Of a stretch of 64,000 bases of DNA, positions 10,125 through 39,640 are shown piece by piece. Numbering within the stretch: position 1 is the stretch's first letter; each line of letters starts with the position of its first letter. The notes under the pieces were generated by a model. It saw nothing but the letters and a program-made list of their open reading frames with translations, ran no database searches and was not told the DNA's origin. A program made the translations under genes and the position numbers. Source of the DNA: Vulcanimicrobiota bacterium (GTDB lineage Bacteria > Vulcanimicrobiota > Xenobia > Xenobiales > JADMJV01); NCBI GenBank assembly GCA_019637395.1, contig JAHBVR010000014.1:191414-255413 (forward strand), read 5' to 3'.

Positions 10125-10203
10125 CGAGGAGCCCTTCGCGAGATTTGGCAGCGTCCTGCTCTTGACAATATCTTAACCTGGCTCGCGTTACCCTGACCCG
10201 GTC

Positions 10204-12653: not shown

Positions 12654-12656
12654 AGC

Positions 12657-23502: not shown

Positions 23503-23676
23503 TGAGTGGGCTTTGGCGTTCAGGGCGGCGGTTGCGGGGCTTGGTTGTGGGGTTTGTGTGAGCAAGCTTGATGGGCCGGGAGTGGATTGTGTGCCTGTAG
23601 TGTGCCAGAACTCTTTTTCTGGAAGACATTTTTTTCGGAGGCGTCCCAAGCTAGTAGAACGAAGCCAATCTTGCCA

Positions 23677-24702: not shown

Positions 24703-24734
24703 CAATGGTGCAACGGGCGTTGCACAAATACTGC

Positions 24735-24989: not shown

Positions 24990-25042
24990 AAACTATACTA
25001 TACTGGCCCCAATCTATCCAGACACCTGATTCTCTTTGCGAA
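24980..25042. repeat. bipartite direct repeat, copy 2 (TGACTTCCACAAA, 29 nt, ACACCTGATTCTCTTTGCGAA)
   Basis: See copy 1. This copy sits between the HNH stop (25063) and the RHH start (24989). Confidence 0.85.
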
Positions 25043-25062
25043 AGGGGTTGTACCAGTGCCCC

Positions 25063-25817: not shown

Positions 25818-25823
25818 ACTACG

Positions 25824-25854
25824 ATTCTACCTGCTGTTAACGCGTTCTTGTCAA
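25824..25854 (-). promoter_or_regulatory. sigma70-like promoter candidate for the HNH gene (TTGACA, 19 nt, TAGAAT)
   Basis: The minus strand reads TTGACAagaacgcgttaacagcaggTAGAATcgtagtATG. The -10 ends 6 nt before the ATG, implying a leaderless or near-leaderless transcript. The 19-nt spacer is longer than optimal. Confidence 0.35.
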
Positions 25855-26199
25855 ATTTAACACCTTCGGAAAAACCACATAACCAGCCGTTTTAAAAAAA
25901 ATATTTCCCTTCGCTATATGCCGACAGAGACGACTGGAGCGAGCCGGACGCCAAGCTGCGCGAAATGGGCCTTGGCTGGGATCTGATCAGCATTTCCAGG
26001 ATGAGGCCCAGCGAATGCCTGGGGCTCATTGGAGAGACTCGACCTGGACCAGAGGCGAACGAGAGACTGTTCCTGGATCTGGTACCGGCATTGGCGGACC
26101 CTTTCGATGGTTAGCCTGCATCGCTGATCTTCCGGTTATGCATCGTCCTCAATAGCCGGGCTCGGTGAAGTATCAGCCGCTGACCGACTGCACCAAGCC

Positions 26200-26445
26200 T
26201 CAGGGCAGCACCCAGGCGGGGAAAGGGGCGTTTAACTGCTCGGCGGAGCAGGAAGCGAGCAAGATGTTGGTCAGGGCCTGGGTTCGCTGGGCGGCCTCGA
26301 TATCGTTGAACCCGCCGGGGAGAGATTTGGTCGTAAGATTTTGGCCCAGCTCGGCTGTCTTGGGGCAGGCGACTCTCATCCGGTCCAGCAGAAAGAGCTG
26401 CTGGTCCATCGCGTTTTGATTGAAGTTGGTGATGTTGCTTGCCAT
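26200..26445 (-). CDS. hypothetical small protein (81 aa)
   Basis: ATG is preceded by GAGGGA with 8-nt spacing. MASNITNFNQNAMDQQLFLLDRM... No recognised domain. Confidence 0.35.
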   Translation of the reverse strand: MASNITNFNQNAMDQQLFLLDRMRVACPKTAELGQNLTTKSLPGGFNDIEAAQRTQALTNILLASCSAEQLNAPFPAWVLP

Positions 26446-27087
26446 CGGTCGTATCCCTCGCGTTTCTCTTGATGGTCCCAGGATAGCCGGGGGGACTTGC
26501 GGATTTCCTGCGGGAGGCGGTGGAAATGTAACGGCGTTGTTACAGTCTCGGACTGCAAGCAGTTCATCCCTCCGCCTTCAAGCCTGGACCCTTCTCTACA
26601 CTTCCAGGGCTTGATCGGCGTATTCCATCAACTCCAGGTCCCAGCCCGCCAGGCCCTCCCGCAGGGATGAGGAACGGAATGAGTTGGTATTGGCGACCTC
26701 ACCCGGGCCATTTGACTTCATGCACACTGGTAAGGCGTCTCCGATTGTAGTGGTATCCCTGGCGGATGGCCATTTACGCAGCGGCGGCTGCAAGCCCTGG
26801 ATTCACTGTCAGGGGAATCAGTCTGCGGGTTGCTGGAATTGGCGGACCGGGAGAAAATTGGGAGCATCGGGCACTACCGACGCTTTCTGGAGGATTCCGG
26901 ACAGCCAATCTCGGTGCGCCTCAGGGCTGCCGTGGCCCTGAAGAACCTGGGGGATAGGCGCGGACATTCGTTGGTAGAAGAGCAGAGCCGCGAGTCAGCC
27001 AGGAACGAGGACCGGCAGTACGCTCGCAACCGTCTAACTGATAGACGTGCCTGTCAGAAAGTGATCCACCCGGCCCCGGTTATTCTG

Positions 27088-27255
27088 CTAAAAGCTGTTC
27101 TTATTCCTGTAACGGGACCGATAAGACGGGCCGGTGGTCACGAGGATGTGGCAGTGGTGAGTTAATCTGTCGAGAAGTTCCGCTTCCATCTTCGGAGGGA
27201 CGGCAGCGCTTGGTCCCTGGTTGGAGCACAGACTCTCACCGACGATGACCGCTAC
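27088..27255 (-). mobile_element. IS21-family IstB-like ATPase, C-terminal remnant
   Basis: The frame, opening after a TAG, reads VAVIVGESLCSNQGPSAAVPPKMEAELLDRLTHHCHILVTTGPSYRSRYRNKNSF*. This parallels the IstB C-terminus (..AILDRLLHH.H.....G.SYR..). Confidence 0.35.
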
Positions 27256-27301
27256 CTATCTCGGCTCGCGCGAGACATTCCCAAGGAGGGCGGCCATTTA
27301 G

Positions 27302-27630
27302 AGAAAGCGGCTCGCCAGCGATTGGTGGCGAGACGATTTTGCTTCGGGAGTCAGTGAGGCTTTCATTGGGTTTGTAAAAAGGCTGATGCTCCGCCACCCG
27401 AAACGCAATTTCTACTTGGTCCTGGACAACGGCACCACTCACTGTAGCGAGATGACCAAGGACTTCTTCGCTAAAAATCCACGGATTGTTCCTATATTTA
27501 CGCCCACTCACGCTTCCTGGCTGAACCAAATCGAGATATGGTTCAGCGTGATGAGTCGTCAGGCTCTACGTAAAGTTAGCTTCACCAGTCGTCAGAAGCT
27601 GATCGAAAGACTTGAGGCCTACGTTTCTAC
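27302..27630 (+). mobile_element. IS630-family DDE transposase, C-terminal remnant
   Basis: FIGFVKRLMLRHPKRNFYLVLDNGTTHCSEMTKDFFAKNPRIVPIFTPTHASWLNQIEIWFSVMSRQALRKVSFTSRQKLIERLEAYV carries the second catalytic D and the E of DDE_3 (LDN..H ... P.H.SWLNQIE.WF). The N-terminal two thirds are missing. The ORF then reads through unrelated sequence. Confidence 0.6.
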
Positions 27631-27655
27631 TCCAAAGACAAGCCGCTTGTCGGCG

Positions 27656-27919
27656 TCACCGCCAGGGAAAGGCGGCGCAGTCGAAACACTGCTCGGGAGT
27701 TCCGAAAGGCCGCCCATTGTTGAGATAACTTGGCTCGTAGCCACCCCGCAGCCCTCGGCTCCACGAATAGAAGGCAAACTCCCACTCGTCGTCACTTCCA
27801 AGATACCGAAGGTGGCAAACGGGCTGCTCAACGTCTTCCTCATCAGCAGGCTCCTCGCTAACGCCAGCAAGGTCGGCATCTACGTAGACGAATGCGCCAC
27901 GAACGCGCACGTCCAGCAT
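27656..27919 (-). CDS. small conserved hypothetical protein
   Basis: MLDVRVRGAFVYVDADL...VCHLRYLGSDDEWEFAFYSWSRGLRGGYEPSYLNNGRPFGTPEQCFDCA. From memory this resembles a widespread uncharacterised family (..LCRLRY.GS...W.FA.Y.AS...Y..S.L..G...GTPEEALDCA). The match is not verified. Confidence 0.4.
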   Translation of the reverse strand: MLDVRVRGAFVYVDADLAGVSEEPADEEDVEQPVCHLRYLGSDDEWEFAFYSWSRGLRGGYEPSYLNNGRPFGTPEQCFDCAAFPWR

Positions 27920-28167
27920 TCTTGCTTTCTAGCATTCATGGCATTTAGGGTAGGTACGAACTTGCCGGAGGGTGCACTGAGCCCTGAGCGTCCCGTCGGC
28001 CGGCGGCATTACAGCCCGGTGAGTTGTTACGGGTTTGTAAAAAATTTTGGGCGGATTGTAGAAAGTTTTCAGCACGGCGCAAGTTTTACGAAATCCTAGA
28101 ATGATAGCCTTTGGAAGTCGAGCGGTTGGCTCTATGAGAGTCACAATTAACCAGGAGGTCTTACCCC

Positions 28168-29535
28168 ATGGCATCAGGGACGGTCAGTTCTTCTTCGAGC
28201 AGTGGTGGCGGCTCGAGCAGCGTCAGCAACTCCGGCGGGGGCAGCAAAACATCCAGCACGGACACGGGCAGCAAGAAGACTGCGCAGACCAAGAGTGAGC
28301 AGCCCGCGGCCACTCCTACTTTCACCAAGGACGGCATCACACTCACTGCGGAAGCCAAAACTCGGGAAACCTCCAATGCCCCCGACATGGGAGCTCTGGC
28401 GGCCGCGCTGGGAGAACAGCCGCCCACCTGGAAGGACCAGCTGGGGACGCAGACGATGCAGAAGGGCGCCGATGGCGAGTCGGTGACGGCCCTGCAGAGC
28501 GCCCTGAATGAAAAGTTGGGCCTTTCGCTGGACACGGACGGCAAGTTCGGACGGGATACGCTCTCGGCCGTCAAAGACTTTCAACAGCAGAACGGGTTGA
28601 CCGTCGACGGAATCGTTGGCAAAGACACGCGTGCCGCTTTGCTGGCCGAGAAAAAGGAAGCGGAGCCGGCCAAGCCGTTGGATGCCAATCAGTATGCGCT
28701 GCTCAACGAGCAATTAGGCAAGGGAACGTTGCAAAAGGGGTCGGACGATAAGGATGCGGTGACCACGCTGCAGAATGCCCTCAATGATCGCGGCGCCCAG
28801 TTGGGCGTGGACGGGCTCTTTGGCAACAAGACCAAGCAAGCGGTGGAGAGCTTTCAGCGCGAGAACGGGCTGCCGGTCAACGGCAAGTTCGACGACGCCA
28901 CCCGGGCGGCGCTGCTCGGGCCCGAGCCGCCCAAGACGCGCGAGCAACTGCAAGACGAGGAAGCCGCTCGGCGAATGGAGGCCAGCCAGCCGAAGCAGGA
29001 CGACCTGATCTTCGGAGACAAACTGACCGCCGAAGAACAGCAAAAGGTTCGAGATGTGGCCGCTTCTCTCGGAGCCGACCCCAACGACCTGATGGCGGTC
29101 ATGGCGGCGGAGACCGGCGGCACCTTCGACCCGGCCGAGCGAGCCGGCAAGAACGGCGCGGTGGGGCTGATCCAGTTCACCAATACGGCCATCACCGAAA
29201 TGAACAAAGGCCTGCCCAGGGACCAGCAGTTGACCAAGGCGTCCCTCGAACAGATGTCCTTTACCGAACAAATGGACCACGTCCAGTCCTATTTGCAGAC
29301 GATGATGGATCGCTACAACGGACCGGCCAACCCGGACCGCGGCGATCTGTATGCGGCCGTTTTTTCCCCGGCACTGGTGGACAACTCCGATACGGCTCGC
29401 ATCTACGGAGGCAACAGCAGAGAATATCTCGCCAACAAGAGTTTGGACACCAATCGGGACGGGTTTATCACCCGTAACGAACTGACGGCGCGCGCCGATG
29501 AATGGTATGAGCGCGGCTTGGAAGTCATGGTCTAA
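28168..29535 (+). CDS. muralytic protein: disordered Ser/Gly-rich N-terminus, two peptidoglycan-binding (PG_binding_1) repeats, lysozyme/SLT-like domain and C-terminal EF-hand
   Basis: AGGAGG Shine-Dalgarno about 10 nt upstream. PG-binding repeats LQSALNEKLGLSLDTDGKFGRDTLSAVKDFQQQNGLTVDGIVGKDTRAALL and LQNALNDRGAQLGVDGLFGNKTKQAVESFQRENGLPVNGKFDDATRAALL. SLT-like LMAVMAAETGGTFDP..GAVGLIQFT. Canonical EF-hand loop DTNRDGFITRNE. Confidence 0.8.
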   Translation: MASGTVSSSSSSGGGSSSVSNSGGGSKTSSTDTGSKKTAQTKSEQPAATPTFTKDGITLTAEAKTRETSNAPDMGALAAALGEQPPTWKDQLGTQTMQKGADGESVTALQSALNEKLGLSLDTDGKFGRDTLSAVKDFQQQNGLTVDGIVGKDTRAALLAEKKEAEPAKPLDANQYALLNEQLGKGTLQKGSDDKDAVTTLQNALNDRGAQLGVDGLFGNKTKQAVESFQRENGLPVNGKFDDATRAALLGPEPPKTREQLQDEEAARRMEASQPKQDDLIFGDKLTAEEQQKVRDVAASLGADPNDLMAVMAAETGGTFDPAERAGKNGAVGLIQFTNTAITEMNKGLPRDQQLTKASLEQMSFTEQMDHVQSYLQTMMDRYNGPANPDRGDLYAAVFSPALVDNSDTARIYGGNSREYLANKSLDTNRDGFITRNELTARADEWYERGLEVMV

Positions 29536-29789
29536 ATATTCTCGAGCCCAACTGTTCAAGTCTGAAGGGGGCTACAACTACTTACCTCCTTTCGTGCGAA
29601 TCATCGTGCCGAGGGGCGGAGCCTGGTTTCAACGAACCCGGATCCATGGCCAATCCAAAGATGCCGTCCGACTTCCGTCCGCTTGGGGCGACCGGCTGAC
29701 CAAACCAACACGAGTATTCCGGTGCAGTCTTCGCCCTGCTACCTGGCGGCAAGGTTACCCGGCCACTAGAAACCGAACGCCGAGGAGCT

Positions 29790-30100
29790 TGATAGCTGGA
29801 AGGACACGCAAGAAGAATACGAGTTGCCCGGGTCCTGTCCGGCAGAGTTCATCACCACGGTGACGACTCCAGTGCGGACCATTGAACTTCCGCCGCTGCT
29901 GGTGGAGGCCGAGTTTCAGAACTTCCAATGGTTCCCGCTTGCGAACGATGACTCTCCTACTCGCAAATAGTCGCCGACCTGGCCAGCCAAGGATTTCGGC
30001 TGCCGAGCGCAGATGAGTGGGAATATGCATGCGCCGCGGGGTCTCGCACTTTATTTCACTGGGGAGACCACGTTCCGTGTGATTGGTATCCCGTCGATCC
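29790..30100 (+). pseudogene. FGE-sulfatase/SUMF1-like domain fragment (frameshifted, truncated)
   Basis: The frame opening at 29952 reads LSYSQIVADLASQGFRLPSADEWEYACAAGSRTLFHWGDHVPCDWYPVD (RLP...EWEYA...G core). The upstream piece, ..VRTIELPPLLVEAEFQNFQWFPLANDD, is in another frame closed by TAG at 29968-29970. Confidence 0.35.
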
Positions 30101-30119
30101 TGCAAGGCAGCTGCCGGTT

Positions 30120-30280
30120 GAGCCAGACTGGGCAGGCATACTCCGACAAAGCCGGGCATTTCCTCGATGGGCACCAGGTCGGCGGCGCGCAGTTTTCTTC
30201 TCCAGGTCGCGAAGGTGGCCACGGCGATCTGTTTCTTCGCACAAAAGTGCTCTGCGTCAGTCCACTGCGGTTGAATTCAG
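30120..30280 (-). mobile_element. IS66-family TnpA-like accessory protein fragment
   Basis: The minus strand reads EFNRSGLTQS, then after a frame change FCAKKQIAVATFATWRRKLRAADLVPIEEMPGFVGV. This follows the SGLSQ..FC.......TF..WRRKL.....FVEV pattern of IS66 orf1 proteins. The match is from memory only. Confidence 0.3.
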
Positions 30281-30293
30281 CAAAGACTCCGTA

Positions 30294-31140
30294 TCAATGG
30301 ACCAGTTCTCGTTCGGCCAGGTCACGAAAAGGTCCGGGGTTTGCGAGCCAGGGCCCGGGCCAGCAGCAACAGTTGCTTCTGGCCGACCGAGAAAGTGCTT
30401 CCCAGATTTGTTCTTCGCTCAGATCCTGGGCCCCGGCGATGGCGTCGCGCAGGCAGCCGGGAAAGAGTTGAGCGTCCTGCAAAACCACTCCGAGCTGGCG
30501 GCGTAGATGGCCGAGGTCCAGTTCGTTCAGCGGCATCTGGTCGTAACAGATGGAGCCCTGCTGGGGTTGCTTGAAGCCCAGCAGCAGGCGCAGCAGGGTG
30601 GATTTGCCGGCTCCGGTAGGGTCGACTACGGCCAGCAGTTCGCCGGGGATAAGTTCCAGATCGACATCCTGGAGCACGGGAGCGGCGCCGGGCTGGTAGG
30701 CGAAGGTCACCTTGTGCAGAGAAATGGCGCCTCGCAACTCGTGGACACGGGTGGCCCGCTTACTTTTCGACGGTTCTCGAAGTATCGGTTGAAAACGTTG
30801 CACCTGAGTCCCAAAAGTGAGCAGGGCGGCCCAGCAGCAGTTGCTCGGTGGCGGTCAGGCAAGCCAGCCAGAGAGGTAGATCCGCATTGCCGATCCAAAA
30901 GAGCAGGGCCAGCGTCAGGCCCGGCAAGGCCGCCCCCCAGCCCGACTGGAGCGCGGCCAACCGGCGCAAACGGTCCTGCAGGTGACGCTGCTGGCCGAAG
31001 AGGTCCGACCAGACCTGAAAGCCCCTCTCTTCGGCGCGATGGACTTTCAGGCAACTCAGGCCTTGAATCAGTTGGGCAGCAGGCCCCAGAGGCGATTCAT
31101 TCTAGGCCGAAGTCCGTGAGCCTCGCGCTTGAGGTAGGCG
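30294..31140 (-). pseudogene. ABC exporter (fused TMD-NBD type), decayed
   Basis: Frame 30803-30294 gives ISLHKVTFAYQPGAAPVLQDVDLELIPGELLAVVDPTGAGKSTLLRLLLGF..LRRQLGVVLQDAQLF, with Walker A variant DPTGAGKST and a Q-loop. The signature FSVGQKQLLLLARALARKP lies in a different frame (about 30341-30397). Walker B and the H-loop are absent. TM-like fragments lie in further frames up to about 31140. Confidence 0.55.
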
Positions 31141-31341
31141 CCCGACCATAGATAGGATTCAAGCATTGGCGGCCTGTGGCATTTCAACCGAGGCAGGGCT
31201 CGTTCAAGTCAGCTTTGGCGACCTGATCACCGACTTGTGCGCGCCCTTGTATTCGTGACTGCTGATGCCTTCCGCGTCGGGAACCAGCTTCAGGCCCACG
31301 CTTGCCAGTTTCTCTGAGACTACGAATTCAAACGATAGTAA

Positions 31342-31363
31342 AAATCCGCAAGAAATCCGCAAG
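31342..31363 (+). promoter_or_regulatory. perfect tandem direct repeat AAATCCGCAAG x2
   Basis: 31342-31352 and 31353-31363 are identical. They lie 55 nt upstream of the ATG at 31419. The same TCCGCAAG core recurs at 39641-39672. Confidence 0.5.
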
Positions 31364-31418
31364 TTGGTTCTGGCATCCTGACTTCAGAGACCAACCAACG
31401 AAACGGAGAACAAAAACA

Positions 31419-31631
31419 ATGTCCCACATCCAGAGTCACAACCACCACATCCATAATCATAGCAACCGCGTCGACGGCTACAATCCCCGCACCGAAGGCT
31501 ATGACCCCAAGAAGTTCAAGCTTCCGTCCGAGGATTTTACGCCCATGCCCCTGCCCCATGTCGACCGGGTGGATATCGGCATCCACTCCGGGTGGGACCC
31601 CAGTCTGATCCGCCCTACCTTCGCGAAGTAG
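31419..31631 (+). CDS. small His-rich hypothetical protein (70 aa)
   Basis: ATG is preceded by ACGGAG 11 nt upstream. MSHIQSHNHHIHNHSNRVDGYNPRTEGYDPKKF... The track start at 31302 is less likely. Confidence 0.4.
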   Translation: MSHIQSHNHHIHNHSNRVDGYNPRTEGYDPKKFKLPSEDFTPMPLPHVDRVDIGIHSGWDPSLIRPTFAK

Positions 31632-31637
31632 TTCAGG

Positions 31638-31714
31638 AGAGCCCTTCAGCTTCAAAGGCCTTCATCCAGCGTCCGAACAGGGCGCAGGCCAGGTCTCACG
31701 GGCTGAAGGGCTCT
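31638..31714 (+). terminator. long hairpin (13-bp perfect inverted repeat, ~51-nt loop), terminator or attenuator candidate
   Basis: AGAGCCCTTCAGC at 31638-31650 is the exact reverse complement of GCTGAAGGGCTCT at 31702-31714. It starts 7 nt after the stop of the small ORF and is followed by TCTTCTT. Confidence 0.4.
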
Positions 31715-31742
31715 TCTTGGCGGCTTGCGCTGAGCCCGACCA

Positions 31743-32738
31743 ATGACAGGCCAGGAGTTCCTCCTCATGGCGACTAAACTCCGCTGGATGAAGAATGCTG
31801 AGCCGCTGGTCGTCCAACTTGCCCGCGGCCACCTGCAGGGCAAGGTTTCCCTGGGCCAGTTGGTGGAATGCGTGGAGCAGACCCTGCACAAGGTGGAGGA
31901 GCACCGCGGTCTGGTTCGCGCTCAAAGCCGGGACCAGCGGCTGGCCCCTGAGCTCGCCGCCGTGGAGCAGTGTTTCGACGACTACCTGGGGCTACTGAAG
32001 GGGCAGAGCTATCCGCGGGTGGTGGAGCAACTGCCGGCCCGGGCCGAACACCTGGCCCGCGCTTTGGCCCAGCTCGATCATAGTCGCTGGGTGCTGCAGG
32101 GTCCGACTTCTCTGGCCGGACTCAACGAGATCCTTTGGCTGACGCGGGAACAGCAGTGGCAGCGCTTGGAGCAACGTCTCGAACAGGAACGGCACTTCTG
32201 GTCTAGCTATCCGTCTCTCCAGCCTGAAATTCTGCGCCCGCAGGCGCTGCAGTTCGCGGAGGCCTATCTGGGATGGCTGAACCATTTTCCGGGTCCGGAG
32301 CAGGTGCAAGGCTGGGCCGAGCAGGGGAAGGAACTGGGCCCCGAGCATGCGGCCTGGGATCTCGTGCCTATCGTGCGAGCCAGCCAGGACGGGCCGACCA
32401 CCTTCCCCACTTTCAATGCGGTCGTGCACGCTGTTTCTTCGCGCTCCCGCGGTGAGTTGGGCCTGGAGGCAGTGGACCTCTGCCTGGAGCAGTTGCGCCA
32501 GGCCTGCCAGTTGGTTGAGCCGACTGAGGAGGAGGGGTCCAGGGAGTTCGGCGAGTTCCTGGAGGACCTTTCGAAGCTGCTCATGCACCTGTCCAGGTGG
32601 AATGCGGCCGGCGGCCGGGCCGAGGCGCTGCCGCCTTTGCTCAAGCTGCTGCACGAGTTGGGTGACGAATTTACCGACTTCAGGTCTCTCCTGACAGCGC
32701 CTTCCAGGCCTCATTCAGATCCCGAAAGCGTTTCCTAG
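31743..32738 (+). CDS. hypothetical all-helical protein (331 aa)
   Basis: Leu/Glu/Gln/Ala-rich sequence with heptad-like stretches and no TM or signal. The 3' end overlaps the convergent kinase gene by 59 nt. Confidence 0.5.
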   Translation: MTGQEFLLMATKLRWMKNAEPLVVQLARGHLQGKVSLGQLVECVEQTLHKVEEHRGLVRAQSRDQRLAPELAAVEQCFDDYLGLLKGQSYPRVVEQLPARAEHLARALAQLDHSRWVLQGPTSLAGLNEILWLTREQQWQRLEQRLEQERHFWSSYPSLQPEILRPQALQFAEAYLGWLNHFPGPEQVQGWAEQGKELGPEHAAWDLVPIVRASQDGPTTFPTFNAVVHAVSSRSRGELGLEAVDLCLEQLRQACQLVEPTEEEGSREFGEFLEDLSKLLMHLSRWNAAGGRAEALPPLLKLLHELGDEFTDFRSLLTAPSRPHSDPESVS

Positions 32739-33891
32739 GGTCCTTGGCCAGCATGCGGTCGATGGCCGCGGCCATCCCTTCGGGTAGGTGGGGAGCCACC
32801 TCGCGCAGCGGCGGCGGCACCAGGTCGAGCTGCTGATCGACCACCTCCATCGCATCCTTACCGTCGAAGGGCCGTTTCCCGCTGAGGATTTCGTAGAGAA
32901 TCACGCCCAGGGCATACTGATCGCTGGCTGGATCGATGTCTCCCTCAATTTGTTCCGGGGCCATGTATTGGGGGGTGCCCATCACCAGGCCGGTGGCGGT
33001 GACCACCGTCAGCCCGTCGCCGCGCGACACGCCAAAATCCAACACCTTGATCTGGCCCGACTCGGTCAGCAGCAGGTTATCCGGCTTGAGGTCGCGGTGC
33101 ACGATGTTGGCCTGGTGAGCCTGGAGCAGTCCCTGGAAGACCGGCCCGAAGAGCTGTAGTGCGCGCTCAGGCGGGCATCGTGGCTCTTCACGCAGTAACT
33201 CCCTAAGGTTCTTTCCGCGTAGCAATTCCAGGACCATGTAGCAGCGCGAGCCCACTTCTCCGGCATCATAGTGGCGCACCAGATTGGGGTGGTGGAGCGA
33301 TTGCAATACTTTGGACTCGCGCAGCATCCGCTTGCGCGCATCGGCGGAGTCCTCTTTCATCACCTTGAAAGCAAACTCTTGAGAGCCGTGGGTGGCCCGG
33401 TAAACATCGGCCATGGCGCCCTGTCCAAGAAATTCTTGAATTTGGTAGGGTCCAATCTGCTGGCCCCGCAGACCGCGAGCGGGCGGCGCGGGGCGAGAGC
33501 GGCGGCGGCGCCCGAGCCAGATCAGAACTCCAGCCAGCGGCACCAGGGCCAGGCCCCAGTATTTTTTACTCCAGTAGAGCGCCTGCTGGCAGCGGTTGGA
33601 CACCCCGGGCAAGGGCGTGAGGTGATAGCTTCCCTGGCGGGGTAACACGCCCTGAGCTTCCTGGACGGAGAAGCTTTGGCGTAACTCGGCATAGCCGCTC
33701 CGGCGCAAAACCAGAGTCAACTGCGCGGACATGCCGGGTTCGAAACGCACCCCCTGATCGGCCGTCCCAAGGGAGCTGGCCGAGACTTCGGGGATCCAAA
33801 CCTCGGCATCGTCCGGTTCGCAGTGGATGCGCAGCTCCTGAGTCTGGGCCTGGAGCCAGAGAGTGAGCAGGAGCCACAGGAAGACACGCAC
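32680..33891 (-). CDS. receptor Ser/Thr protein kinase with N-terminal PEGA-like ectodomain
   Basis: GTG start. Signal peptide (M)RVFLWLLLTLWLQAQT. PEGA-like IHCEPDDAEVWI..LTLVLRRSGYAELRQSFSV. TM segment WGLALVPLAGVLIWLGRRRR. Kinase motifs GQGAMADVY, AFKVMK, HRDLKPDNLLL, DFGVS and GTPQYMAPE. Confidence 0.85.
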   Translation of the reverse strand: MRVFLWLLLTLWLQAQTQELRIHCEPDDAEVWIPEVSASSLGTADQGVRFEPGMSAQLTLVLRRSGYAELRQSFSVQEAQGVLPRQGSYHLTPLPGVSNRCQQALYWSKKYWGLALVPLAGVLIWLGRRRRSRPAPPARGLRGQQIGPYQIQEFLGQGAMADVYRATHGSQEFAFKVMKEDSADARKRMLRESKVLQSLHHPNLVRHYDAGEVGSRCYMVLELLRGKNLRELLREEPRCPPERALQLFGPVFQGLLQAHQANIVHRDLKPDNLLLTESGQIKVLDFGVSRGDGLTVVTATGLVMGTPQYMAPEQIEGDIDPASDQYALGVILYEILSGKRPFDGKDAMEVVDQQLDLVPPPLREVAPHLPEGMAAAIDRMLAKDPRKRFRDLNEAWKALSGET

Positions 33892-33955
33892 GATCCCTGG
33901 CTTCGCAGGGCCCCGCGGCAGGTCCTACCTGGCGGGAAGCGAACTCTGCCAGGTC

Positions 33956-35800
33956 ATGAGAATGCGATGGAGACGGGGAATGTCCATCCTCTCGGTTCTG
34001 ATGCTGGTCACAGTGTTGAGCCTGCTGGCGAGCACCATGGCGGGCGTTTATCTGATGAATCTGAACTTTGCGCAGACCCACCAGAATGCCGCGCTGGCCC
34101 TCCAGGAAGCCGATGCCGCCGTGGGTCGGCTCACCACCGCCCTGGTGCAGAACCTCGACCTGAACCTGACCGATTGGACCTACCAGGGCACTCTGGGCAA
34201 GGCCGATCCCGATCCCGAGGTCTGGGCCGCCATCAGCTTCGGCGACCGAACCATTGGTGGGGTGCACCTGCCTCGCTCCATCAACAATTTTGGCGGGAGC
34301 GCCTCCGACCACGAGACCCCCCCGGGAAAGTGCCGAGTCTACGCGGTGGGCTACTGCCGTGGGGTGATCCAGACGGTGGAAGTGCTGCTGTCGGCCCCAC
34401 CCTATCCTTACGGGCTGGCGGTGGCGGGAAATCTCGAAAGCGAGGCCCTGACCATCCGGGGCACGGCCGACGGCGACGATTCTCCGCGCCCGGGCCATCT
34501 GGCCACGCGCCGGAAGTTGACTCTGGGGGCCAATAGCTACATTTCCGGCGATGTTTATGCTCGCGAGGCGGACATTTCTCCCAGCAATTGCACCATTCTC
34601 GGGGCCCGGCGTCTGTCGGAGACCCCGCGGGAGCTGCCTCTTTTAGACATCGATGAACTGTTCGGCAAAGTCACCGGTCACGCCGTCAAGATCGATGTGC
34701 CCGCCATGTTCAATCCGCAAGTCCTGAACACGCTCTACACCTGGGGAACGCCGGGAAACAATGCCGATACCCTGAGGCTGGAAACCAGTTCCATCCACTT
34801 TGACAATGGTATCCTGAGGGTCTATGGGAGCGTCTCCATTGACGCGGTCACGCTGAGCGGCAAGGGGGCCATCCTGTGCACCGGTAACCTGACTATCGAC
34901 AGCCAGACCGACCTGGATGGCAGGGACGACTGGCTGGCACTGGTGGCGGGCGGCAAGATCACCCTGCGCTCGGGTAACCACACTCAAATTCGAGGTATTG
35001 TCTACGCCCAGCAGGGGTTGGAGGCCGAGAAGGTGCTGGTGAATGGCAGCGCCATCTGCAATTCCGCCAGCGACCCCGACCAGGCCGCGGCAAAGTTGAC
35101 GAACTGCGAATTTGCCAGCGACCCCACCACCGCCAACGTGACTCTGACGGTCCAGATCAGCGGAGACGCCAGCGGCAACGGGGGGATTGAGCGCACCAAC
35201 GGCAGCGGCCAGGCCCCTTTCAGTCTGTCGCGCAATGCCCAGGGCCTGGCCTCGGTCAGCGGTGGAGGAACGGTCGAAAGCGGCGAGATCATGGCCTCCG
35301 GTATGGATAGATTTGTCAATTCGAATGGACCTCCCTTCAGCATTCCGGCCAATGCGCTCACGGGCAATGGCCCGGCGGCCGACGCGGTGCTGGACCAGTT
35401 CAAGACCCTGGGAACGCTGTCGCAAAGTCTGGATTCCGCCCGGCAGGCTCTGGCGGCGGCCGAGGCGGCCCTGGCGGCGGCCCAGGCCGCCGACGATGAC
35501 GATGACGACGGGAACTCCGGCCAGGTGGAAGCGGCCCGCCAGGCGGTGGAAGCGGCCCAGGCTGCCGTGGACGCGCAACTGGAGGCCTTCAATCAGCAGG
35601 CCAGTGCGGCTCAATCCGCCTACCAGAACTATGTCCAGACCACCACCGGCTCCAGCAGTTCGGTCTCCAGTGGAGGTGGTGGTGGGGGCTCCGGTCCGCC
35701 GGCGCCTCCCCTGAAGCTGAACTTCGACATCAACGCCTTTCTGCCCAAGAGCGAGTCTTATCGCATTAGCTACTACCGGATCCACAAAGGGCTGCCCTGA
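33956..35800 (+). CDS. giant PilX-N/ComZ-like minor-pilin-type protein with beta-helix-like middle and Ala-rich coiled-coil / poly-Asp tail
   Basis: From the ATG at 33956: MRMRWRRGMSILSVLMLVTVLSLLASTMAGVYLMNLNFAQTHQNAALALQEADAAV (PilX_N-like). Repetitive G-x-L/I-T/S strands follow (GNLTIDSQTDLDG..GGKITLRSGN..). C-terminus AAAEAALAAAQAADDDDDDGNSGQVEAARQAVEAAQAAV and a GGGGGGSGPP tail. Confidence 0.65.
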   Translation: MRMRWRRGMSILSVLMLVTVLSLLASTMAGVYLMNLNFAQTHQNAALALQEADAAVGRLTTALVQNLDLNLTDWTYQGTLGKADPDPEVWAAISFGDRTIGGVHLPRSINNFGGSASDHETPPGKCRVYAVGYCRGVIQTVEVLLSAPPYPYGLAVAGNLESEALTIRGTADGDDSPRPGHLATRRKLTLGANSYISGDVYAREADISPSNCTILGARRLSETPRELPLLDIDELFGKVTGHAVKIDVPAMFNPQVLNTLYTWGTPGNNADTLRLETSSIHFDNGILRVYGSVSIDAVTLSGKGAILCTGNLTIDSQTDLDGRDDWLALVAGGKITLRSGNHTQIRGIVYAQQGLEAEKVLVNGSAICNSASDPDQAAAKLTNCEFASDPTTANVTLTVQISGDASGNGGIERTNGSGQAPFSLSRNAQGLASVSGGGTVESGEIMASGMDRFVNSNGPPFSIPANALTGNGPAADAVLDQFKTLGTLSQSLDSARQALAAAEAALAAAQAADDDDDDGNSGQVEAARQAVEAAQAAVDAQLEAFNQQASAAQSAYQNYVQTTTGSSSSVSSGGGGGGSGPPAPPLKLNFDINAFLPKSESYRISYYRIHKGLP

Positions 35801-36192
35801 TGTCTCGACGGTCGGGTTTCAGCCTCTCGGAAGTGCTGGTTTCGCTGCTCATCCTCTCGCTGGTTTCGGTCTTGATGGTAGGGGTCATTCCCAGCTCTAT
35901 TTTCGGTTTGCGCCAAGCCCAGCACCGGCAGGCGGCCCTGCAGCTCTGCCAGACCACCAGCGCCGGGCTGCGCTCGGTGGGCTTCGACCAGTTGGCGGTC
36001 AGCGATTGGAGTCCGGATAAGACTTACCAGGTGGACTCGTTGGATTATACGATCCAATACCGGATTTCCGAACTGGCCGAGCAGGACCCGACCAGTCACA
36101 AGCCCCTGGCCAAGTTGATCGAATGCCGCGTGCGCTGGTTCATTCAGCACCGGCCCAGCCGCTACGAGTATGCCACGCTGGTGTTGCGCTGA
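35800..36192 (+). CDS. prepilin-type N-terminal cleavage/methylation domain protein
   Basis: ATGA overlap with the upstream stop. MSRRSGFSLSEVLVSLLILSLVSVLMVGV (G|FSLxE followed by a hydrophobic helix). Confidence 0.78.
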   Translation: MSRRSGFSLSEVLVSLLILSLVSVLMVGVIPSSIFGLRQAQHRQAALQLCQTTSAGLRSVGFDQLAVSDWSPDKTYQVDSLDYTIQYRISELAEQDPTSHKPLAKLIECRVRWFIQHRPSRYEYATLVLR

Positions 36193-36827
36193 TGCGGCGG
36201 ACGGGCACGACCTTGCTGGAATTGGTGGTGGCCATCGGGCTGCTGGGGGTGGTCACCTTTCTGCTGATGCAGCTCTTTCTTCCCAGTATGTGGATGTTCA
36301 ATCGGCAGCAATCGAATAGTGAGAGTTTTCAGAATTCGATGTTTCTGACCCAGCGTCTGCAAATCGAGTTGACTCATTCCTGCTGGGAAACGGTCACGCT
36401 GGTCCAGAATCAGCCCGCCGCGGGAGTGGCCTGGGCGCTTTCTTTGCGCCCGGTGCTGCGCTATGCGGCCAGTTCCGGCAATCCCATCGTAGAGGAGAGG
36501 TTCCTGGTCTACTTTCATAACCCGGAGCAGAAGAAGGTCTATTTCTTTCCTTGGGTTCCGGTGGTTCCGGCGGGGGAGGAGTTCCCGCTCAAATTAACTC
36601 CGGCCGCCTTGTCGGCGGCTTGCCTGAATTCCCAGAATGTTCGCGAGCGTCGAATGCTGACGCGCTATGTCAGCGAGTTTTCTTTCACCGATCGGGATGG
36701 TTCTCTGACCATTCTGGATCCGCCTCTGCAATTTCACCTGGTGGTTCAGGTCCCCGATGCCAACAATCGGGGCGTGGAAACGACCACCACCGACATTCCT
36801 CTCCAGTGCAGGAATGTTCGTTGGTAG
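36192..36827 (+). CDS. prepilin-type N-terminal cleavage/methylation domain protein
   Basis: ATGA overlap with the upstream stop. MRRTGTTLLELVVAIGLLGVVTFLLMQLF. Confidence 0.78.
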   Translation: MRRTGTTLLELVVAIGLLGVVTFLLMQLFLPSMWMFNRQQSNSESFQNSMFLTQRLQIELTHSCWETVTLVQNQPAAGVAWALSLRPVLRYAASSGNPIVEERFLVYFHNPEQKKVYFFPWVPVVPAGEEFPLKLTPAALSAACLNSQNVRERRMLTRYVSEFSFTDRDGSLTILDPPLQFHLVVQVPDANNRGVETTTTDIPLQCRNVRW

Positions 36828-38065
36828 GGAGCTGGAGGCTCCTACTCAGTCTGGCTCTGGTGCTCGCTCAAGGGTTGTGGTCCTGGCCTCGCCGTCTCGG
36901 CCCGGGACTGTATGTGGAGACGGTTCCCTCGGGTTGCCGCGTGATTTTGAGGAGCAAATTGACCCTGGCGGTGGGGCCCACCGGCCGCTTTCAGGCCGGG
37001 GTGGGCGGCATCGAACTGGGCCGCACGCCCGGCCCGCTGCAGTTGGAAGAGAAGGAGCTCCCGGCTTTGCTCAGCTTTGAGCTGCCCGGCTTCGAGCCGC
37101 TGGAGCGTCCTTTCCCCAGGGATGCCTTTCGTCATCCTCAGAGGCTGAGGCTCACCCCCAAGATTCCTGTGCTGGTGCCTCTAGCCTATCGGATCGGGCG
37201 GGACTTCCCTTTTGCCTCTCTGTTGCTGGCCTTCTGGCTGGGGACCGGCCTGCTCTGGCTGGGCCGGCGCCGGCGCGAGCGCCAGACCGAAGAACGCCTG
37301 CGCACGTCGGCGACTCTGGTTCAAGGTGACAGGATTGGTCCGTATCGAGTGCAACGCGAGTTGGGTCGGGGTGGCATGGGTGTGGTCTACCAGGTGCTTT
37401 CGCCGTCAGGAACGCCCCTTGCTCTCAAGCTTTTGCAGCCGGTGGCGCGGCCCGAAGAGGAGGTTCGGGCTTTGTTGGGTCTGCAGCATCCCAATGTGGT
37501 CCATATTTTGGACTGGGGCGAGGCCGAGGGGCAATTCTATCTGGTCATGGAGTGGGTGGAGGGACAGACCCTGGCTGAGGTGGTTGGCGAACAATTGCCG
37601 GACGTTGCCCAGCTGACCGATTGGATGAGCCAGTTGTGCCAGGCCCTGGCCTATATCCACGGCAAGTCGATTGTCCACAACGACCTGAAACCTTCCAATC
37701 TCATGCTGCGTGACGGTCGGCTGATTCTGATGGATTTCGGCATTGCTCACAGCTCGGAGCGGCCGCGCGCCCAACTGGGCACCCCCGGCTATGTGGCCCC
37801 CGAGAAGATCCACGGTGGTGCCGGAGATTGGCGCTCCGACTATTACTCGGCGGCTTGCTGCTGGTTTTACTTGTGGGAGGGCCGGCCCGCCTTCGAGGGG
37901 CGTACTCCGGTGCAGACTCTTCGTCTACAAGGTCAGGGCCAGTTGCCCGCCGGCCAGCGGCCCATGCCGGAGCAATGGTTCAGCTTGTGGTCGCGCTGGA
38001 TGAATTCGGACCCGGATCAGCGGACGGCGCCCTCCAGCGCGGAAACCGCCCGGGAATTCAGGTAA
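36821..38065 (+). CDS. receptor Ser/Thr protein kinase with N-terminal PEGA-like ectodomain (paralogue of 32680-33891)
   Basis: In-frame TTG at 36821 overlaps the upstream stop (36825-36827) and gives signal peptide (M)VGSWRLLLSLALVLAQG. PEGA-like VETVPSGCRVIL..LSFELPGFEPLERPF. TM segment LLLAFWLGTGLLWLGRRRR. Kinase motifs GRGGMGVVY, ALKLL, HNDLKPSNLML, DFGIA and GTPGYVAPE. Confidence 0.85.
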   Translation: MVGSWRLLLSLALVLAQGLWSWPRRLGPGLYVETVPSGCRVILRSKLTLAVGPTGRFQAGVGGIELGRTPGPLQLEEKELPALLSFELPGFEPLERPFPRDAFRHPQRLRLTPKIPVLVPLAYRIGRDFPFASLLLAFWLGTGLLWLGRRRRERQTEERLRTSATLVQGDRIGPYRVQRELGRGGMGVVYQVLSPSGTPLALKLLQPVARPEEEVRALLGLQHPNVVHILDWGEAEGQFYLVMEWVEGQTLAEVVGEQLPDVAQLTDWMSQLCQALAYIHGKSIVHNDLKPSNLMLRDGRLILMDFGIAHSSERPRAQLGTPGYVAPEKIHGGAGDWRSDYYSAACCWFYLWEGRPAFEGRTPVQTLRLQGQGQLPAGQRPMPEQWFSLWSRWMNSDPDQRTAPSSAETAREFR

Positions 38066-38086
38066 AGGGCGAGGAAAGGCCCAGCT

Positions 38087-39610
38087 ATGGATTCGCACGA
38101 AATTCAAACCCTGAAAATCGCCAGGCGTCCCAAGTCTCAGGGGAAGCGGGTGGCCTTTCTGCAGGTGCTCTCAGGGGAAGCGGCCGGCTCCATCGTCGTT
38201 CTCCAGGAACAAGAATTGGAGATGGGCCGCCAGGGCAGCGGCCTGGTGATCCGCGATGTGGGAGTGAGTCGCCGTCACGCCCGCCTGGAGTTTTCCGAGG
38301 GCTACCGACTGATCGACCTGGAGAGCACCAACGGGACCATCGTCAACGGCGAAAGCATTCAGGAGGCATCGCTGAACGACGGTGACACCATCGAACTGGG
38401 GCGGGACTGCACTTTGCGGTTTTGCTGGCAAACGGAGCAGCAATTGGAGTCGGCTCAGAAGTTAGCCCGGGCCACCACGCTCGATTCGGCCACCGGCTTT
38501 CTCAAGGTGGAGGCCTTTCAACGCCGCCTGGAGCAAGAGATCGCACTGGCCTCCCGGGGCGCCCTCAGCTTGAGTCTGCTCTCCATCGCCAGCTCTCAGC
38601 CTGAGGATTGCGCTAAAGGGCTGGCCTCGCTGGCTCGGCGTGAGGATGAGCTGGGGCTTTCAGGTGGTGATTCGTTCTTAATGATGTTGCGCAATACCGA
38701 TTCGTCCGGTGCTTTGAAGTTCGTGGAGCGACTGGAGAAGTCTCTCTCCGCCCTGGAGCCTCGCGTCTCCGGGGTGAGCTGGCTGGTGGGCGAGGATGCT
38801 TCGCGCCTGTTGGCCCGATTGCACTCGAGCCAGGGATTGGCCTTCGGGGAGGAGCCCAGCCTGTCGGGGCTGCGCCTCTATTCGCTGGGCGGTTTCGAAG
38901 TCTATCTCGGCTCCCAGCGCCTGGAGCAGTGGCATAGCCGCAAGGTGCGTTTTCTGCTGGCCTGCATCGCTTCGCGGTCGCGCCCGGTGAGCGCCGATCT
39001 GGTGACGGAGTATCTTTGGGGAGACGATCCGCTTTCGGCGGCCGGGGCGCTTCAGACCGCCGTTTCCCATCTGCGCAAGCAGCTGCGGCCCGAGGGAGCC
39101 CCGAAGAACCTCAACTACATTCTGAGAAATCCCCTGGGCTTTTACTTGAATCCCGAATTGCCGCACTGGCACGATTTGGAGCAACTGGAGCAGACCCTGG
39201 AGCAAATTCAGCGTCTGCAAGGGAGCCCCGAATCCTTTCGCTGGCTGCGCCAGCTCCGCCAGCTCTATCGCGGGCCCTATTTGGAGGGCTGCTATCAGGA
39301 TTGGGCCGACGCTCAGCGCAACCAGGTGGAGGCCCGGGTGCTGCATGCTCTGCAGTCTTGTCTGCCCGGCCTGGCCCAGGCCGGCAAGCCGGAAGAGCTT
39401 TTGGAAACCAGTCTTTTTGCCACCAAGATCGACCCTTGCCTGCAGGAGGCCCACGGGGCGGCCATGCAGGCCTATGTGGCACTGGGCCGGCCGGAACAGG
39501 CGTTGCGTCACTTTCAGTGGGCCGAGAAGGCCCTGTCGGAAGAACTGGGAGTGGAACCTTCGCTGGCCTTGCTGGAGCAATATCAGAGAGCCCGGCTGGC
39601 CCTGGCTTAG
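38087..39610 (+). CDS. FHA / degenerate GGDEF / SARP-type (wHTH + BTAD) transcriptional regulator
   Basis: FHA region LEMGRQGSGLVIRDVGVSRRHARLEF..ESTNGTIVNGESI. GGDEF-like region LDSATGFLKVEAFQRRLEQEI..LSLLSIAS..LSGGDSFLMMLRN, with GGDSF and the first metal-binding Asp lost. OmpR-type wHTH LRLYSLGGFEVYLGSQRLEQWHSRKVRFLLACIASR..ADLVTEYLWGD. BTAD LYRGPYLEGCYQDWADAQRNQVEARVL..AMQAYVALGRPEQALRHFQWAEKALSEELGVEPS. Confidence 0.85.
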   Translation: MDSHEIQTLKIARRPKSQGKRVAFLQVLSGEAAGSIVVLQEQELEMGRQGSGLVIRDVGVSRRHARLEFSEGYRLIDLESTNGTIVNGESIQEASLNDGDTIELGRDCTLRFCWQTEQQLESAQKLARATTLDSATGFLKVEAFQRRLEQEIALASRGALSLSLLSIASSQPEDCAKGLASLARREDELGLSGGDSFLMMLRNTDSSGALKFVERLEKSLSALEPRVSGVSWLVGEDASRLLARLHSSQGLAFGEEPSLSGLRLYSLGGFEVYLGSQRLEQWHSRKVRFLLACIASRSRPVSADLVTEYLWGDDPLSAAGALQTAVSHLRKQLRPEGAPKNLNYILRNPLGFYLNPELPHWHDLEQLEQTLEQIQRLQGSPESFRWLRQLRQLYRGPYLEGCYQDWADAQRNQVEARVLHALQSCLPGLAQAGKPEELLETSLFATKIDPCLQEAHGAAMQAYVALGRPEQALRHFQWAEKALSEELGVEPSLALLEQYQRARLALA

Positions 39611-39640
39611 AATTTACATTTAGTTAACATCTGGCCGGGT

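Follow-up and report, generated by a model that had tools for sequence, protein, structure and literature searches.

A block of six densely packed genes lies at positions 32680–39610 of a 64,000-nucleotide stretch of DNA from a Vulcanimicrobiota bacterium (GenBank assembly GCA_019637395.1, contig JAHBVR010000014.1, positions 191,414 to 255,413 of the forward strand), referred to here as the window. As read from the listing and translation of open reading frames (ORFs), the block encodes two receptor kinases, three prepilin-like proteins and a transcriptional regulator. Five of these genes, namely an A-type kinase, a B-type kinase and the three pilins, make up a cassette that is conserved in the phylum Vulcanimicrobiota (Eremiobacterota), and we are confident both of the identity of the parts and of the conserved linkage between kinases and pilins. 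The features of the block are the following.

32680..33891, minus strand: kinA, A-type bitopic Hanks Ser/Thr kinase (403 aa; Pkinase E 2e-51)
33892..33955, no strand: 64 bp separating the divergently oriented kinA and pilin operon, presumed common control region
33956..35800, plus strand: large minor pilin of ComZ/PilX type by predicted fold (614 aa; 606 aa from start 33980)
35800..36192, plus strand: pil1, prepilin of PilV/GspI size (130 aa; N_methyl above cut-off)
36192..36827, plus strand: pil2, prepilin of PilW/GspJ size (211 aa; MRRTG/TTLLE with Glu5 kept, the slash here and below marking the predicted cleavage site)
36821..38065, plus strand: kinB, B-type bitopic Hanks kinase (414 aa; TTG start; Pkinase E 7e-40)
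38087..39610, plus strand: regulator with FHA, degenerate GGDEF-like and winged-helix plus BTAD (SARP) regions (507 aa)

The gene order and coordinates had been given in an earlier note made from the sequence alone, and they are borne out by ORF translation, by domain matches and by an independent gene call of the identical contig (Logan assembly, SRR12908358), which contains the same gene set. That gene call starts kinB at the same codon and the large protein at 33980. The start at 33956 (614 aa) is preferred here because its ATG is kept in a relative with 84% identity, in which ATG 33980 is a TTG, and because the resulting leader ends in Gly, as it does across the family. The two pilin junctions, at 35800 and 36192, are 1-nt TGATG overlaps rather than the 4-nt ATGA overlaps first described, whereas the other spacings stand: the TTG start of kinB overlaps the stop of pil2 by 7 nt, a gap of 21 nt separates kinB from the regulator gene, and the divergent gap between kinA and the large pilin gene is 64 bp. 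This intergenic region is conserved in part with the 84% relative. A terminator scan of 32–40.8 kb returned fewer candidate sites than shuffled sequence, and none was convincingly placed between genes.

By nucleotide comparison (blastn), positions 32682–39619 of the window align with the contig of the relative SZAS-1 at 82.7% over 6,948 nt, and the only other alignments between the two are a 353-nt piece at 31317–31669 and a 107-nt repeat. The flanking genes differ between the two genomes. Judged by this comparison, the six-gene block, regulator included, is a unit within the lineage of the window. Protein identities to the relative are 81% for kinA, 84% for the large pilin, 89% for pil1, 88% for pil2, 85% for kinB and 89% for the regulator. 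The adjacent signal-less secreted proteins, at first taken as part of the output of the system, drop out of the unit, as homology to the closest relative ends at 39619 and its downstream genes differ.

Kinases, prepilins and regulator of the block

Both kinases consist of an N-terminal hydrophobic segment, an ectodomain of ~100 aa, a transmembrane (TM) segment, a basic stop-transfer sequence and a kinase domain. The ectodomain of kinA, a putative beta-sandwich, is ~90 aa long with a PEGA-like motif, and its TM segment is followed by an RRRR stop-transfer sequence. The kinase domain of kinA scores 175 bits against Pkinase, with the motifs FAFK, HRDLKPDN, DFG and APE intact; that of kinB scores 137 bits, with the motifs LALK, HNDLKPSN (non-RD), DFG and APE. 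Both proteins are accordingly classed as Hanks-type Ser/Thr kinases (PF00069) with predicted catalytic residues. Between its ectodomain and TM segment, kinB carries a conserved juxtamembrane motif, PKIPVLVPLxYxxRD. An orthologue of kinB at 87% identity is annotated ‘bacterium SCN 62-11’, and a word-index homologue search with the kinB ectodomain alone gave no match.

Alignment by hhalign shows the two ectodomain types, A and B, to be homologous (probability 96.5%, E 9e-10), and they have in common the motif P-x-G-A ... LG.TP ... GY, which we take to be the eponymous PEGA pattern. The Pfam model PEGA (PF08308) matched neither of the two window ectodomains and only one of 10 orthologous ectodomains (E<=10), at E 0.042 and 14.2 bits vs a cut-off of 20.8. 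In its structural model the B-type ectodomain folds into a sandwich of eight strands, after which come a juxtamembrane helix and a TM helix. The best Foldseek matches of the ectodomain model were the N-terminal extension (NTE) of SusC and transthyretin-like domains of carboxypeptidase D, with non-significant E-values of 0.17–0.6. It is plausible that the kinase ectodomains are PEGA-like. Of the architecture reported earlier, the segment order is present in both kinases, whereas Pfam PEGA is not detected and the string WLGRRRR, found in both window kinases, is not conserved in orthologues with 81–85% identity; the string is a window-specific coincidence of positive-inside stop-transfer sequences. 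A third Hanks kinase, with its kinase domain N-terminal (472 aa; Pkinase E 3e-42), is encoded at 54422–55840 on the minus strand.

The two small prepilins have N-termini of the type IV pilin/pseudopilin type, from which processing and entry into a filament are predicted. In pil1, the class III signal is canonical (MSRRSG/FSLSE), with FSLSEVLVSLLIL directly after the leader MSRRSG; the protein scores 27.1 bits against N_methyl (PF07963, cut-off 21.2) and 20.9 bits against TIGR02532 (cut-off 16.3), and all its orthologues start with RRGFSLxE. The leader of pil2, MRRTG, is followed by TTLLELVVAIGLL with Glu5 retained, and most of its orthologues start with RRGFTLxE or a close variant. The window copy of pil2 reaches 12.9 bits against N_methyl, below the cut-off, and its orthologue in L006, one of the distant loci described below, passes at 22.5 bits. 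Both proteins combine a leader Gly, Glu at +5 and ~20 hydrophobic residues, and the pattern is kept in all orthologues. The N-terminal signals proposed for the three pilins thus fare unevenly against the models: pil1 passes N_methyl, but the window copy of pil2 stays below the cut-off and the large protein matches neither N_methyl nor PilX_N.

Beyond their N-termini, the small prepilins are less easily placed. Sub-threshold matches of pil1 were to PilV, ComGE and Verru_Chthon B; the Verru_Chthon scores (37.6 bits vs 51.4 for protein B, 13 vs 256.5 for protein C) do not make the block a cassette of that kind. Members of the pil2 family matched ComGE, GspG, GspH and HpsC models weakly, and a PDB search with the pil2 sequence gave no useful match. 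PDB searches with family profiles of pil1 and pil2 returned weak matches to the N-terminal pilin helix and did not yield an assignment to PilV/PilW or GspI/GspJ.

The large pilin has the leader MRMRWRRG and then a hydrophobic alpha1 helix without Glu5 (RRG/MSILSVLMLV). Across its family the N-terminus reads RRG-x-SL-xx-VL, so that Gly-1 is present and Glu5 absent, as in GspK/PilX-type subunits. An AF2 model was built from a 30-sequence alignment (predicted local distance difference test score, pLDDT, 77; residues numbered on the 606-aa version). It predicts an N-terminal helix at 2–57 (56 residues), beta-solenoid strands at ~117–390, a coiled-coil hairpin at ~465–555 and C-terminal strands at 578–603. 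In a Foldseek search with this model, the only significant PDB matches were three chains of ComZ (6QVI; E 1e-6 to 1e-5, probability 1.0, ~500 aligned columns), followed by ice-binding beta-solenoids. Sequence identity to ComZ is 12–13%. The model thus predicts an alpha1 helix and a beta-solenoid as in ComZ/PilX tip pilins, but the sequence places the protein in neither family: Pfam PilX_N matched neither the window protein nor 30 family members, and a PDB sequence search gave no useful match. The label ‘PilX-N/ComZ-like’, attached to the protein at the outset, is therefore kept for its fold (6QVI, E 1e-6) and dropped for PilX_N.

A word-indexed search with the large protein found close relatives only (>=84% identity), and an exhaustive HMMER search gave 451 cluster representatives at E<=1e-3. 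The large beta-solenoid pilin is thus an unannotated protein family of ~450 cluster representatives, the members of which are 500–650 aa long and align from the N-terminus. When 30 members were searched against Pfam, four matched Bactofilin, four DUF7305 and one Ice_binding. The C-terminal motif FDLNxFLPxSE..YW is specific to the family. The hairpin at ~465–555 is Ala/Gln-rich and antiparallel, with a poly-Asp turn and a Gly/Ser-rich linker; a region of this type is found throughout the family, with variable sequence.

The regulator begins with an FHA domain (PF00498, 56.5 bits vs a cut-off of 20.7), in which the motifs GR...SRRH...TNG are present as predicted phosphothreonine (phospho-Thr)-binding residues. 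Towards the C-terminus, BTAD scores 60.2 bits (cut-off 22.1), which marks the protein as SARP-type, Trans_reg_C itself being sub-threshold (22.0 vs 26.2). Residues ~125–260 form a degenerate GGDEF-like domain with the motif GGDSF; GGDEF (PF00990) reaches 20.4 bits vs 23.8 over profile positions 62–113 only, and the protein does not qualify as a diguanylate cyclase. The tetrapeptide RRED lies exactly five residues upstream of GGDSF, the spacing of the cyclic di-GMP (c-di-GMP) I-site, and is a possible I-site candidate. An orthologue with 89% identity keeps the tetrapeptide and is identical over the stretch LARREDELGLSGGDSFLM of the GGDEF-like region. The best PDB sequence matches of the regulator were to EmbR (2FEZ, 5e-10) and AfsR, the AfsR chains aligning with residues 255–502. 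Its domains are ordered FHA, GGDEF-like, winged helix and BTAD, and not winged helix, BTAD and FHA as in EmbR, which it may resemble in its working by analogy only. With 89% identity to the orthologue in locus L002, the regulator is, together with pil1, one of the best conserved proteins of the block (pil1 89.2%, regulator 89.0%).

The cassette across Vulcanimicrobiota

To follow the cassette through other genomes, the six-frame ORFs of fetched loci were searched with the window proteins and with a hidden Markov model (HMM) of the B-type ectodomain. Scanning genomes with a 10-sequence alignment of the large-pilin family gave 12 loci. Eight loci of the scan come from metagenome-assembled genomes (MAGs) labelled Vulcanimicrobiota, Ca. 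Eremiobacteraeota or Ca. Xenobia, and two are labelled only ‘bacterium’, namely SZAS-1 EREM-KAN-1 (the closest, 84%) and BWSM_10. A further three loci, which belong to two MAGs, are labelled otherwise, namely ‘Burkholderiales’ for L005 and L009 (CAZWUN01) and ‘Selenomonadaceae’ for L007 (JBBCJA01), which probably reflect taxonomic mislabelling or mis-binning.

The gene set recurs in ~15 independent distant loci, in which the large pilin is 24–29% identical to the window copy. It was recovered both from the side of the large pilin and from that of the B-type kinase: L024 and L025 were found through the kinase search and yet hold the whole cassette. Among the distant loci, complete cassettes are present in L004–L007, L009, L011 (identical to L016), L012, L015, L024 and L025, and the window lineage has them in L002–L003. 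L008 starts near the end of its contig and has the three pilins together with the B-type kinase, and the short contigs L017–L021 have the large pilin with at least one adjoining kinase, some of them also with pil1 or pil2. In each complete cassette there is exactly one kinase with a B-type ectodomain, as judged by the HMM, and one A-type kinase. Hanks kinases abut the pilin genes in L004–L009, L011, L012, L015, L017–L021, L024 and L025, and in most loci the abutting kinase is the B-type one. At least five gene orders occur, including the following (‘big’ stands for the large pilin gene).

Commonest order: kinA(+) kinB(-) pil1 pil2 big
L004 and L005: kinA kinB ... pil1 pil2 big
L012: pil2(-) pil1(-) kinA(+) kinB(-) big(+)
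L015: big(+) pil2(-) pil1(-) kinB(+) kinA(-)
L024: kinA(-) pil2(-) pil1(-) kinB(+) big(+)
Window: kinA(-) big pil1 pil2 kinB

The co-occurrence of pilins and kinases in related genomes, proposed in the earlier note as a check, is thus present in distant loci whichever side the search starts from. As far as the kinases are concerned, the refuting condition named in that note, pilin sets that are never linked to such genes in other genomes, does not hold. Because Hanks kinases are frequent in the genome, the linkage argument rests on the specific A-type and B-type ectodomains. That the linkage survives protein identities of 24–29% and several rearrangements of gene order speaks for a real functional unit made up of the pilin-like genes and both kinases. 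The FHA/SARP gene, which the earlier note had counted as part of the unit, is adjacent only in the window’s own lineage (L001–L003) and is an add-on to the conserved core. Exceptions to the pattern are L010, without nearby kinases, L013, L022 and L023, which are too short to judge, and L014, where a paralogue of the large pilin lies beside a T2SSF gene. Genomes carry more than one cassette, as with L005 and L009 in one MAG, or with L006 and the edge of L014 on one contig; the L006 cassette is surrounded by unrelated housekeeping genes.

Several of these loci have further features. L010 is the only long locus without adjoining kinases or pil1/pil2, and its large-pilin homologue (9905–11875) is split into two ORFs, likely by a frameshift or as a pseudogene. 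At 8457–20900 of L014, a T2SSF platform gene is directly followed by the 552-aa paralogue of the large pilin, and the same stretch encodes a GAF histidine kinase and a response regulator with HD, TPR and BTAD domains, with a pilin pair in a string with the regulator, as well as an FHA-CHAT protein, an A-type kinase and a further pil2. Judging from this string of genes, FHA and BTAD proteins recur near pilin sets as separate genes. On the minus strand of L007 (14773–18903), another pilin pair is followed by a 900-aa Hanks kinase on the same strand, and the pairing of pilins with kinases may extend beyond the five-gene cassette in Vulcanimicrobiota. Downstream of the complete cassette in L024, at 11277–14676, there is a third kinase as well as a 592-aa fusion of a kinase with a PP2C phosphatase, a candidate eraser of the phospho-signal.

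A proposed minor-pilin tip set with its own kinases

On balance, we lean towards the reading that the block encodes a core minor-pilin set which primes a type IV filament or forms its tip, and the expression or use of which is controlled by a kinase pair of its own, together with the signalling proposal set out below. The three pilins form a size series of 130, 211 and ~600 aa, in the order pil1-pil2-big in most loci. This series and order mirror PilV-PilW-PilX and GspI-J-K. Type IV pili are the means of movement of Vulcanimicrobium alpinus, so far the sole isolate of the phylum (PMC9758169).

The earlier note had instead pictured a pseudopilus or surface-sensing module. Taken as a self-contained organelle, the pilins would form a short periplasmic or surface stub that transmits contact or force to the PEGA-like kinase ectodomains and would serve as a sensor, not as a pilus for motility, adhesion or uptake. 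The strict co-inheritance of the pilins with both kinases would fit such a stub, as would the B-type kinase gene that abuts the pilin genes in most loci, the absence of pilus machinery beside the cassette in most loci, and the conserved B-type juxtamembrane motif, which could be a contact site. A polymer of pilins would, however, still need a prepilin peptidase, an ATPase and a platform protein, none of which is part of the cassette. The large subunit resembles ComZ and cyanobacterial PilX, which are tip pilins of genuine pili, and one of its paralogues adjoins T2SSF (L014). The trio has the size series and the N-termini of a core minor-pilin priming/tip set, a self-contained pseudopilus is not indicated, and we consider it unlikely.

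The fold of the large pilin raises a second alternative, namely that the trio is the tip set of a competence pilus for DNA uptake, with the large protein as DNA receptor and the kinases timing competence. ComZ has been proposed to act with PilA2 as a DNA receptor in Thermus, it is the only significant fold match of the large pilin, and members of the pil1 and pil2 families weakly match ComGE, ComGF and ComGC models. The identity to ComZ is nevertheless only 12–13% with a low TM-score, and the coiled-coil hairpin of ~90 residues is foreign to ComZ as described (PMC6561018). In cyanobacteria, beta-solenoid PilX proteins are assigned to a motility/exopolysaccharide (EPS) set as well as to a competence set (bioRxiv 10.64898/2026.02.12.705559), and neither the window nor the loci examined showed com genes (ComEA, ComEC, DprA). 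A role in competence is therefore improbable in our judgement. A kinase-regulated pseudopilus for polysaccharide secretion of the Hps type (HpsA-D-like), acting as a piston or adhesin for exopolysaccharide, is less credible still. Two members of the pil2 family match HpsC at E ~3e-3, and HpsA is a homologue of the cyanobacterial PilX_EPS subfamily, in which the solenoids are expanded (bioRxiv 10.64898/2026.02.12.705559), but the HpsC scores are far below the curated cut-offs and no glycosyltransferase or polysaccharide-export genes lie beside the cassette in the loci examined.

Chance adjacency in a kinase-rich genome, or an anti-phage defence island, could be argued from the three Hanks kinases in the window, from strong PADLOC matches (PD-T4-6 and mad6) and from the position of the block in a plastic region with a transposase fragment, but it is very improbable, since kinases with A- and B-type ectodomains stay with the pilins in ~15 loci at 24–29% identity and through rearrangements, the L006 cassette lies among housekeeping genes, and the PADLOC matches, on which the defence island was rejected, are confined to the generic kinase domain while the other four proteins match nothing.

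For the favoured coupling of a minor-pilin tip set to a kinase pair, we propose a signalling mechanism that is tentative and may well prove wrong. The trio (PilV-like, PilW-like and ComZ/PilX-like) would prime and cap a type IV filament made by a machine encoded elsewhere. The kinases, each with a single TM helix, would sit in the cytoplasmic membrane, where unassembled pilins reside, and would signal either a cue at the envelope or surface or else how their cognate minor pilins stand, in membrane pool or in assembly; such sensing would parallel that of FimS with PilVWXY1 and of PilS with PilA in Pseudomonas. They would autophosphorylate or cross-phosphorylate on Thr. In the window lineage, the FHA domain of the regulator would dock on phospho-Thr, by the logic of EmbR-PknH, and the SARP DNA-binding module would shift transcription, most simply that of the divergent kinA/pilin operon; the GGDEF-like domain, with RxxD at I-site spacing, may add a c-di-GMP or dimerisation input. 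Since genomes carry more than one cassette, each kinase pair may select the priming tip complex and hence the kind of pilus, which is in line with the idea of ‘distinct priming complexes’ from cyanobacteria and Myxococcus. Gene and domain content, the similarity of fold, the conserved linkage and the borders of the block are observed, whereas the signal, the phosphorylation targets, the FHA-kinase contact and the targets of the regulator are given here as we infer them.

A wider proposal is that the cassette is a phylum-wide checkpoint, in which the homologous ectodomains of paired receptor Hanks kinases would bind or gauge a cognate PilV/PilW/ComZ-like priming complex in the membrane or periplasm and convert its state into phospho-Thr, read here by the FHA / I-site-GGDEF / SARP protein, each of several sets having its own pair to decide which specialised pilus is made. 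We regard this as doubtful. If true, the checkpoint would match, with eukaryote-like kinases, the feedback of FimS-AlgR and PilS-PilR, and surfaces would be sensed through pili in a new way.

A number of observations weigh against a tip set governed by its own kinases and regulator. As to the pilins, the ComZ match has a low TM-score (0.21–0.27) despite ~500 aligned columns, no PilV or PilW model places pil1 or pil2 above threshold, and the cassette has no fourth core minor pilin of the GspH/FimU type. The model of the B-type ectodomain is of modest confidence (pLDDT 64.5, from a shallow orthologue alignment), and with three Hanks kinases in the 64-kb window, adjacency alone is weak evidence. 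As to the DNA, a consensus scan of 32–40.8 kb, the 64-bp region included, found no sigma-70-like promoter, and SARP-type direct repeats were not seen in the 64-bp region by eye in two sequences, no repeat search having been run. Because the FHA/SARP gene is adjacent in one lineage only, it does not give the conserved output of the kinases, which need not be transcriptional.

The window also has no pilus machinery and no recognisable major pilin near the cassette. Pfam scans of the other large ORFs and the precomputed Pfam list of the contig contain no T2SSE, T2SSF, secretin or prepilin peptidase in the window, and phmmer searches with the T2SSE and T2SSF proteins of relatives gave no match there, which confirms the absence of a pilus ATPase, platform protein, prepilin peptidase and secretin noted at the start. 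In favour of a link to type IV pilus machinery, two T2SSE genes of PilT size are located ~3–4 kb downstream of the block in L002.

The components are of known kinds, and that a sensor kinase can be hard-wired to a minor-pilin operon is known as well. ComZ is a tip-associated competence pilin of Thermus, the pilin fold of which harbours a solenoid as an insertion (PMC6561018), and a beta-solenoid architecture is found in all cyanobacterial PilX core minor pilins, for which a role as tip plug has been proposed (bioRxiv 10.64898/2026.02.12.705559). Like these, the large pilin combines a pilin helix with a bulky beta-solenoid and is encoded beside small minor pilins, and its ice-binding-like solenoid matches fit the description of PilX in that preprint. 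Unlike them, it has a coiled-coil hairpin of ~90 residues and its own C-terminal motif and belongs to a phylum-specific family, and neither ComZ nor PilX has been described with a dedicated kinase pair. Compact multi-prepilin cassettes with one large member are also known from the Verru_Chthon set (TIGR02598-02600 and related) and from GspI-J-K of the type II secretion system (T2SS). The best sub-threshold matches of pil1 and pil2 are to Verru_Chthon proteins B and C, and the block has the size series of GspI/J/K and a large subunit without Glu5 like GspK; however, the scores are below the curated cut-offs, these sets are not defined by linked kinases, and T2SS genes are not nearby.

In Pseudomonas aeruginosa, fimS-algR adjoins fimU-pilVWXY1Y2E and the membrane kinase receives feedback from the minor pilins (PMC5979040). 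There too, the minor-pilin operon has the genes of a sensor kinase and a transcription factor as its direct neighbours, and by analogy FimS-AlgR may be the best model for the working of the cassette, although it consists of a histidine kinase and a LytTR response regulator, has PilY1 and not a solenoid PilX, and has no sequence relationship to the block. Mycobacterium tuberculosis provides PknH-EmbR, a receptor Hanks kinase encoded beside an FHA-bearing SARP regulator that is recruited via phospho-Thr. The FHA domain of EmbR is C-terminal and there is no GGDEF-like middle region, whereas the FHA domain of the block’s regulator is N-terminal; EmbR targets arabinosyltransferase and virulence genes instead of pilins, and the PknH ectodomain differs. 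Hanks kinases also control type IV filament genes elsewhere. In Sulfolobus, kinases and an FHA protein of the ArnA/ArnB-ArnC/ArnD network repress the archaellum operon. According to a passage in PMC5924778 (citing Panichkin 2006), Synechocystis SpkA controls the pilA9-11 minor-pilin operon. Neither the Arn proteins nor SpkA are paired receptor kinases with homologous ectodomains, neither has a SARP output, and SpkA is encoded apart from the minor pilins. The action of Stk1 on AlgR is a further precedent for a Hanks kinase (PMC11197903).

The statement that no described system has this wiring was thus too strong in view of FimS-AlgR, PknH-EmbR, SpkA and Arn, none of which includes a cassette with paired Hanks kinases. 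In the literature searched we found no description of a phylum-wide cassette that joins two Hanks kinases with homologous ectodomains to a PilV/PilW/ComZ-like trio, no description of the FHA / GGDEF-like / SARP architecture, and no paper combining PEGA, kinase and pilin. The cassette bears on two questions of type IV pilus biology, namely how cells choose among minor-pilin sets and how tip complexes report surface contact or their own abundance. As a compact and testable genetic unit, it may show how kinases control the priming of pili. It gives bacterial Hanks kinases, few inputs of which are known, a conserved and specific partner and defines a kinase ectodomain family; in one lineage it is joined by an FHA-SARP factor, possibly a sensor of c-di-GMP as well.

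Surroundings of the block in the window

The cassette is at the edge of a rearranged region. Positions 24000–31200 are a plastic stretch of lower GC content (0.54–0.60), which holds a DDE_3 transposase fragment (27386–28099) and a truncated ABC_tran ORF (30294–30803), and to which a YhcG/DUF1016 nuclease gene (23587–24702) is also assigned. The 107-nt element at 31202–31308 has two copies in L003, at 477–583 and 4290–4396, in opposite orientations. Between the conserved piece at 31317–31669 and kinA, the window has ~1 kb of extra sequence (31670–32681), and an ORF within it (31743–32738) overlaps the 3′-end of kinA convergently.

A second prepilin-like pair is encoded at 1101–2128 on the plus strand. 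Its first gene (~1101–1541) starts with MRRKG/FTLAEVMV and its second, which extends to 2128, contains RRG/TTLIELMVV (N_methyl E 2.8e-4). The two proteins have PilV/PilW-like sizes and no detectable homology to pil1 or pil2 by phmmer. The pair is without an adjoining large pilin or kinase gene and is flanked by an aspartyl-protease-like gene and a P450 gene. Finally, an FHA-GAF-HisKA-HATPase hybrid sensor kinase is encoded at 8646–10124 on the minus strand, with an RND efflux operon and a two-component pair of the OmpR type as neighbours, and its domain composition suggests cross-talk between phospho-Thr and His-Asp signalling.

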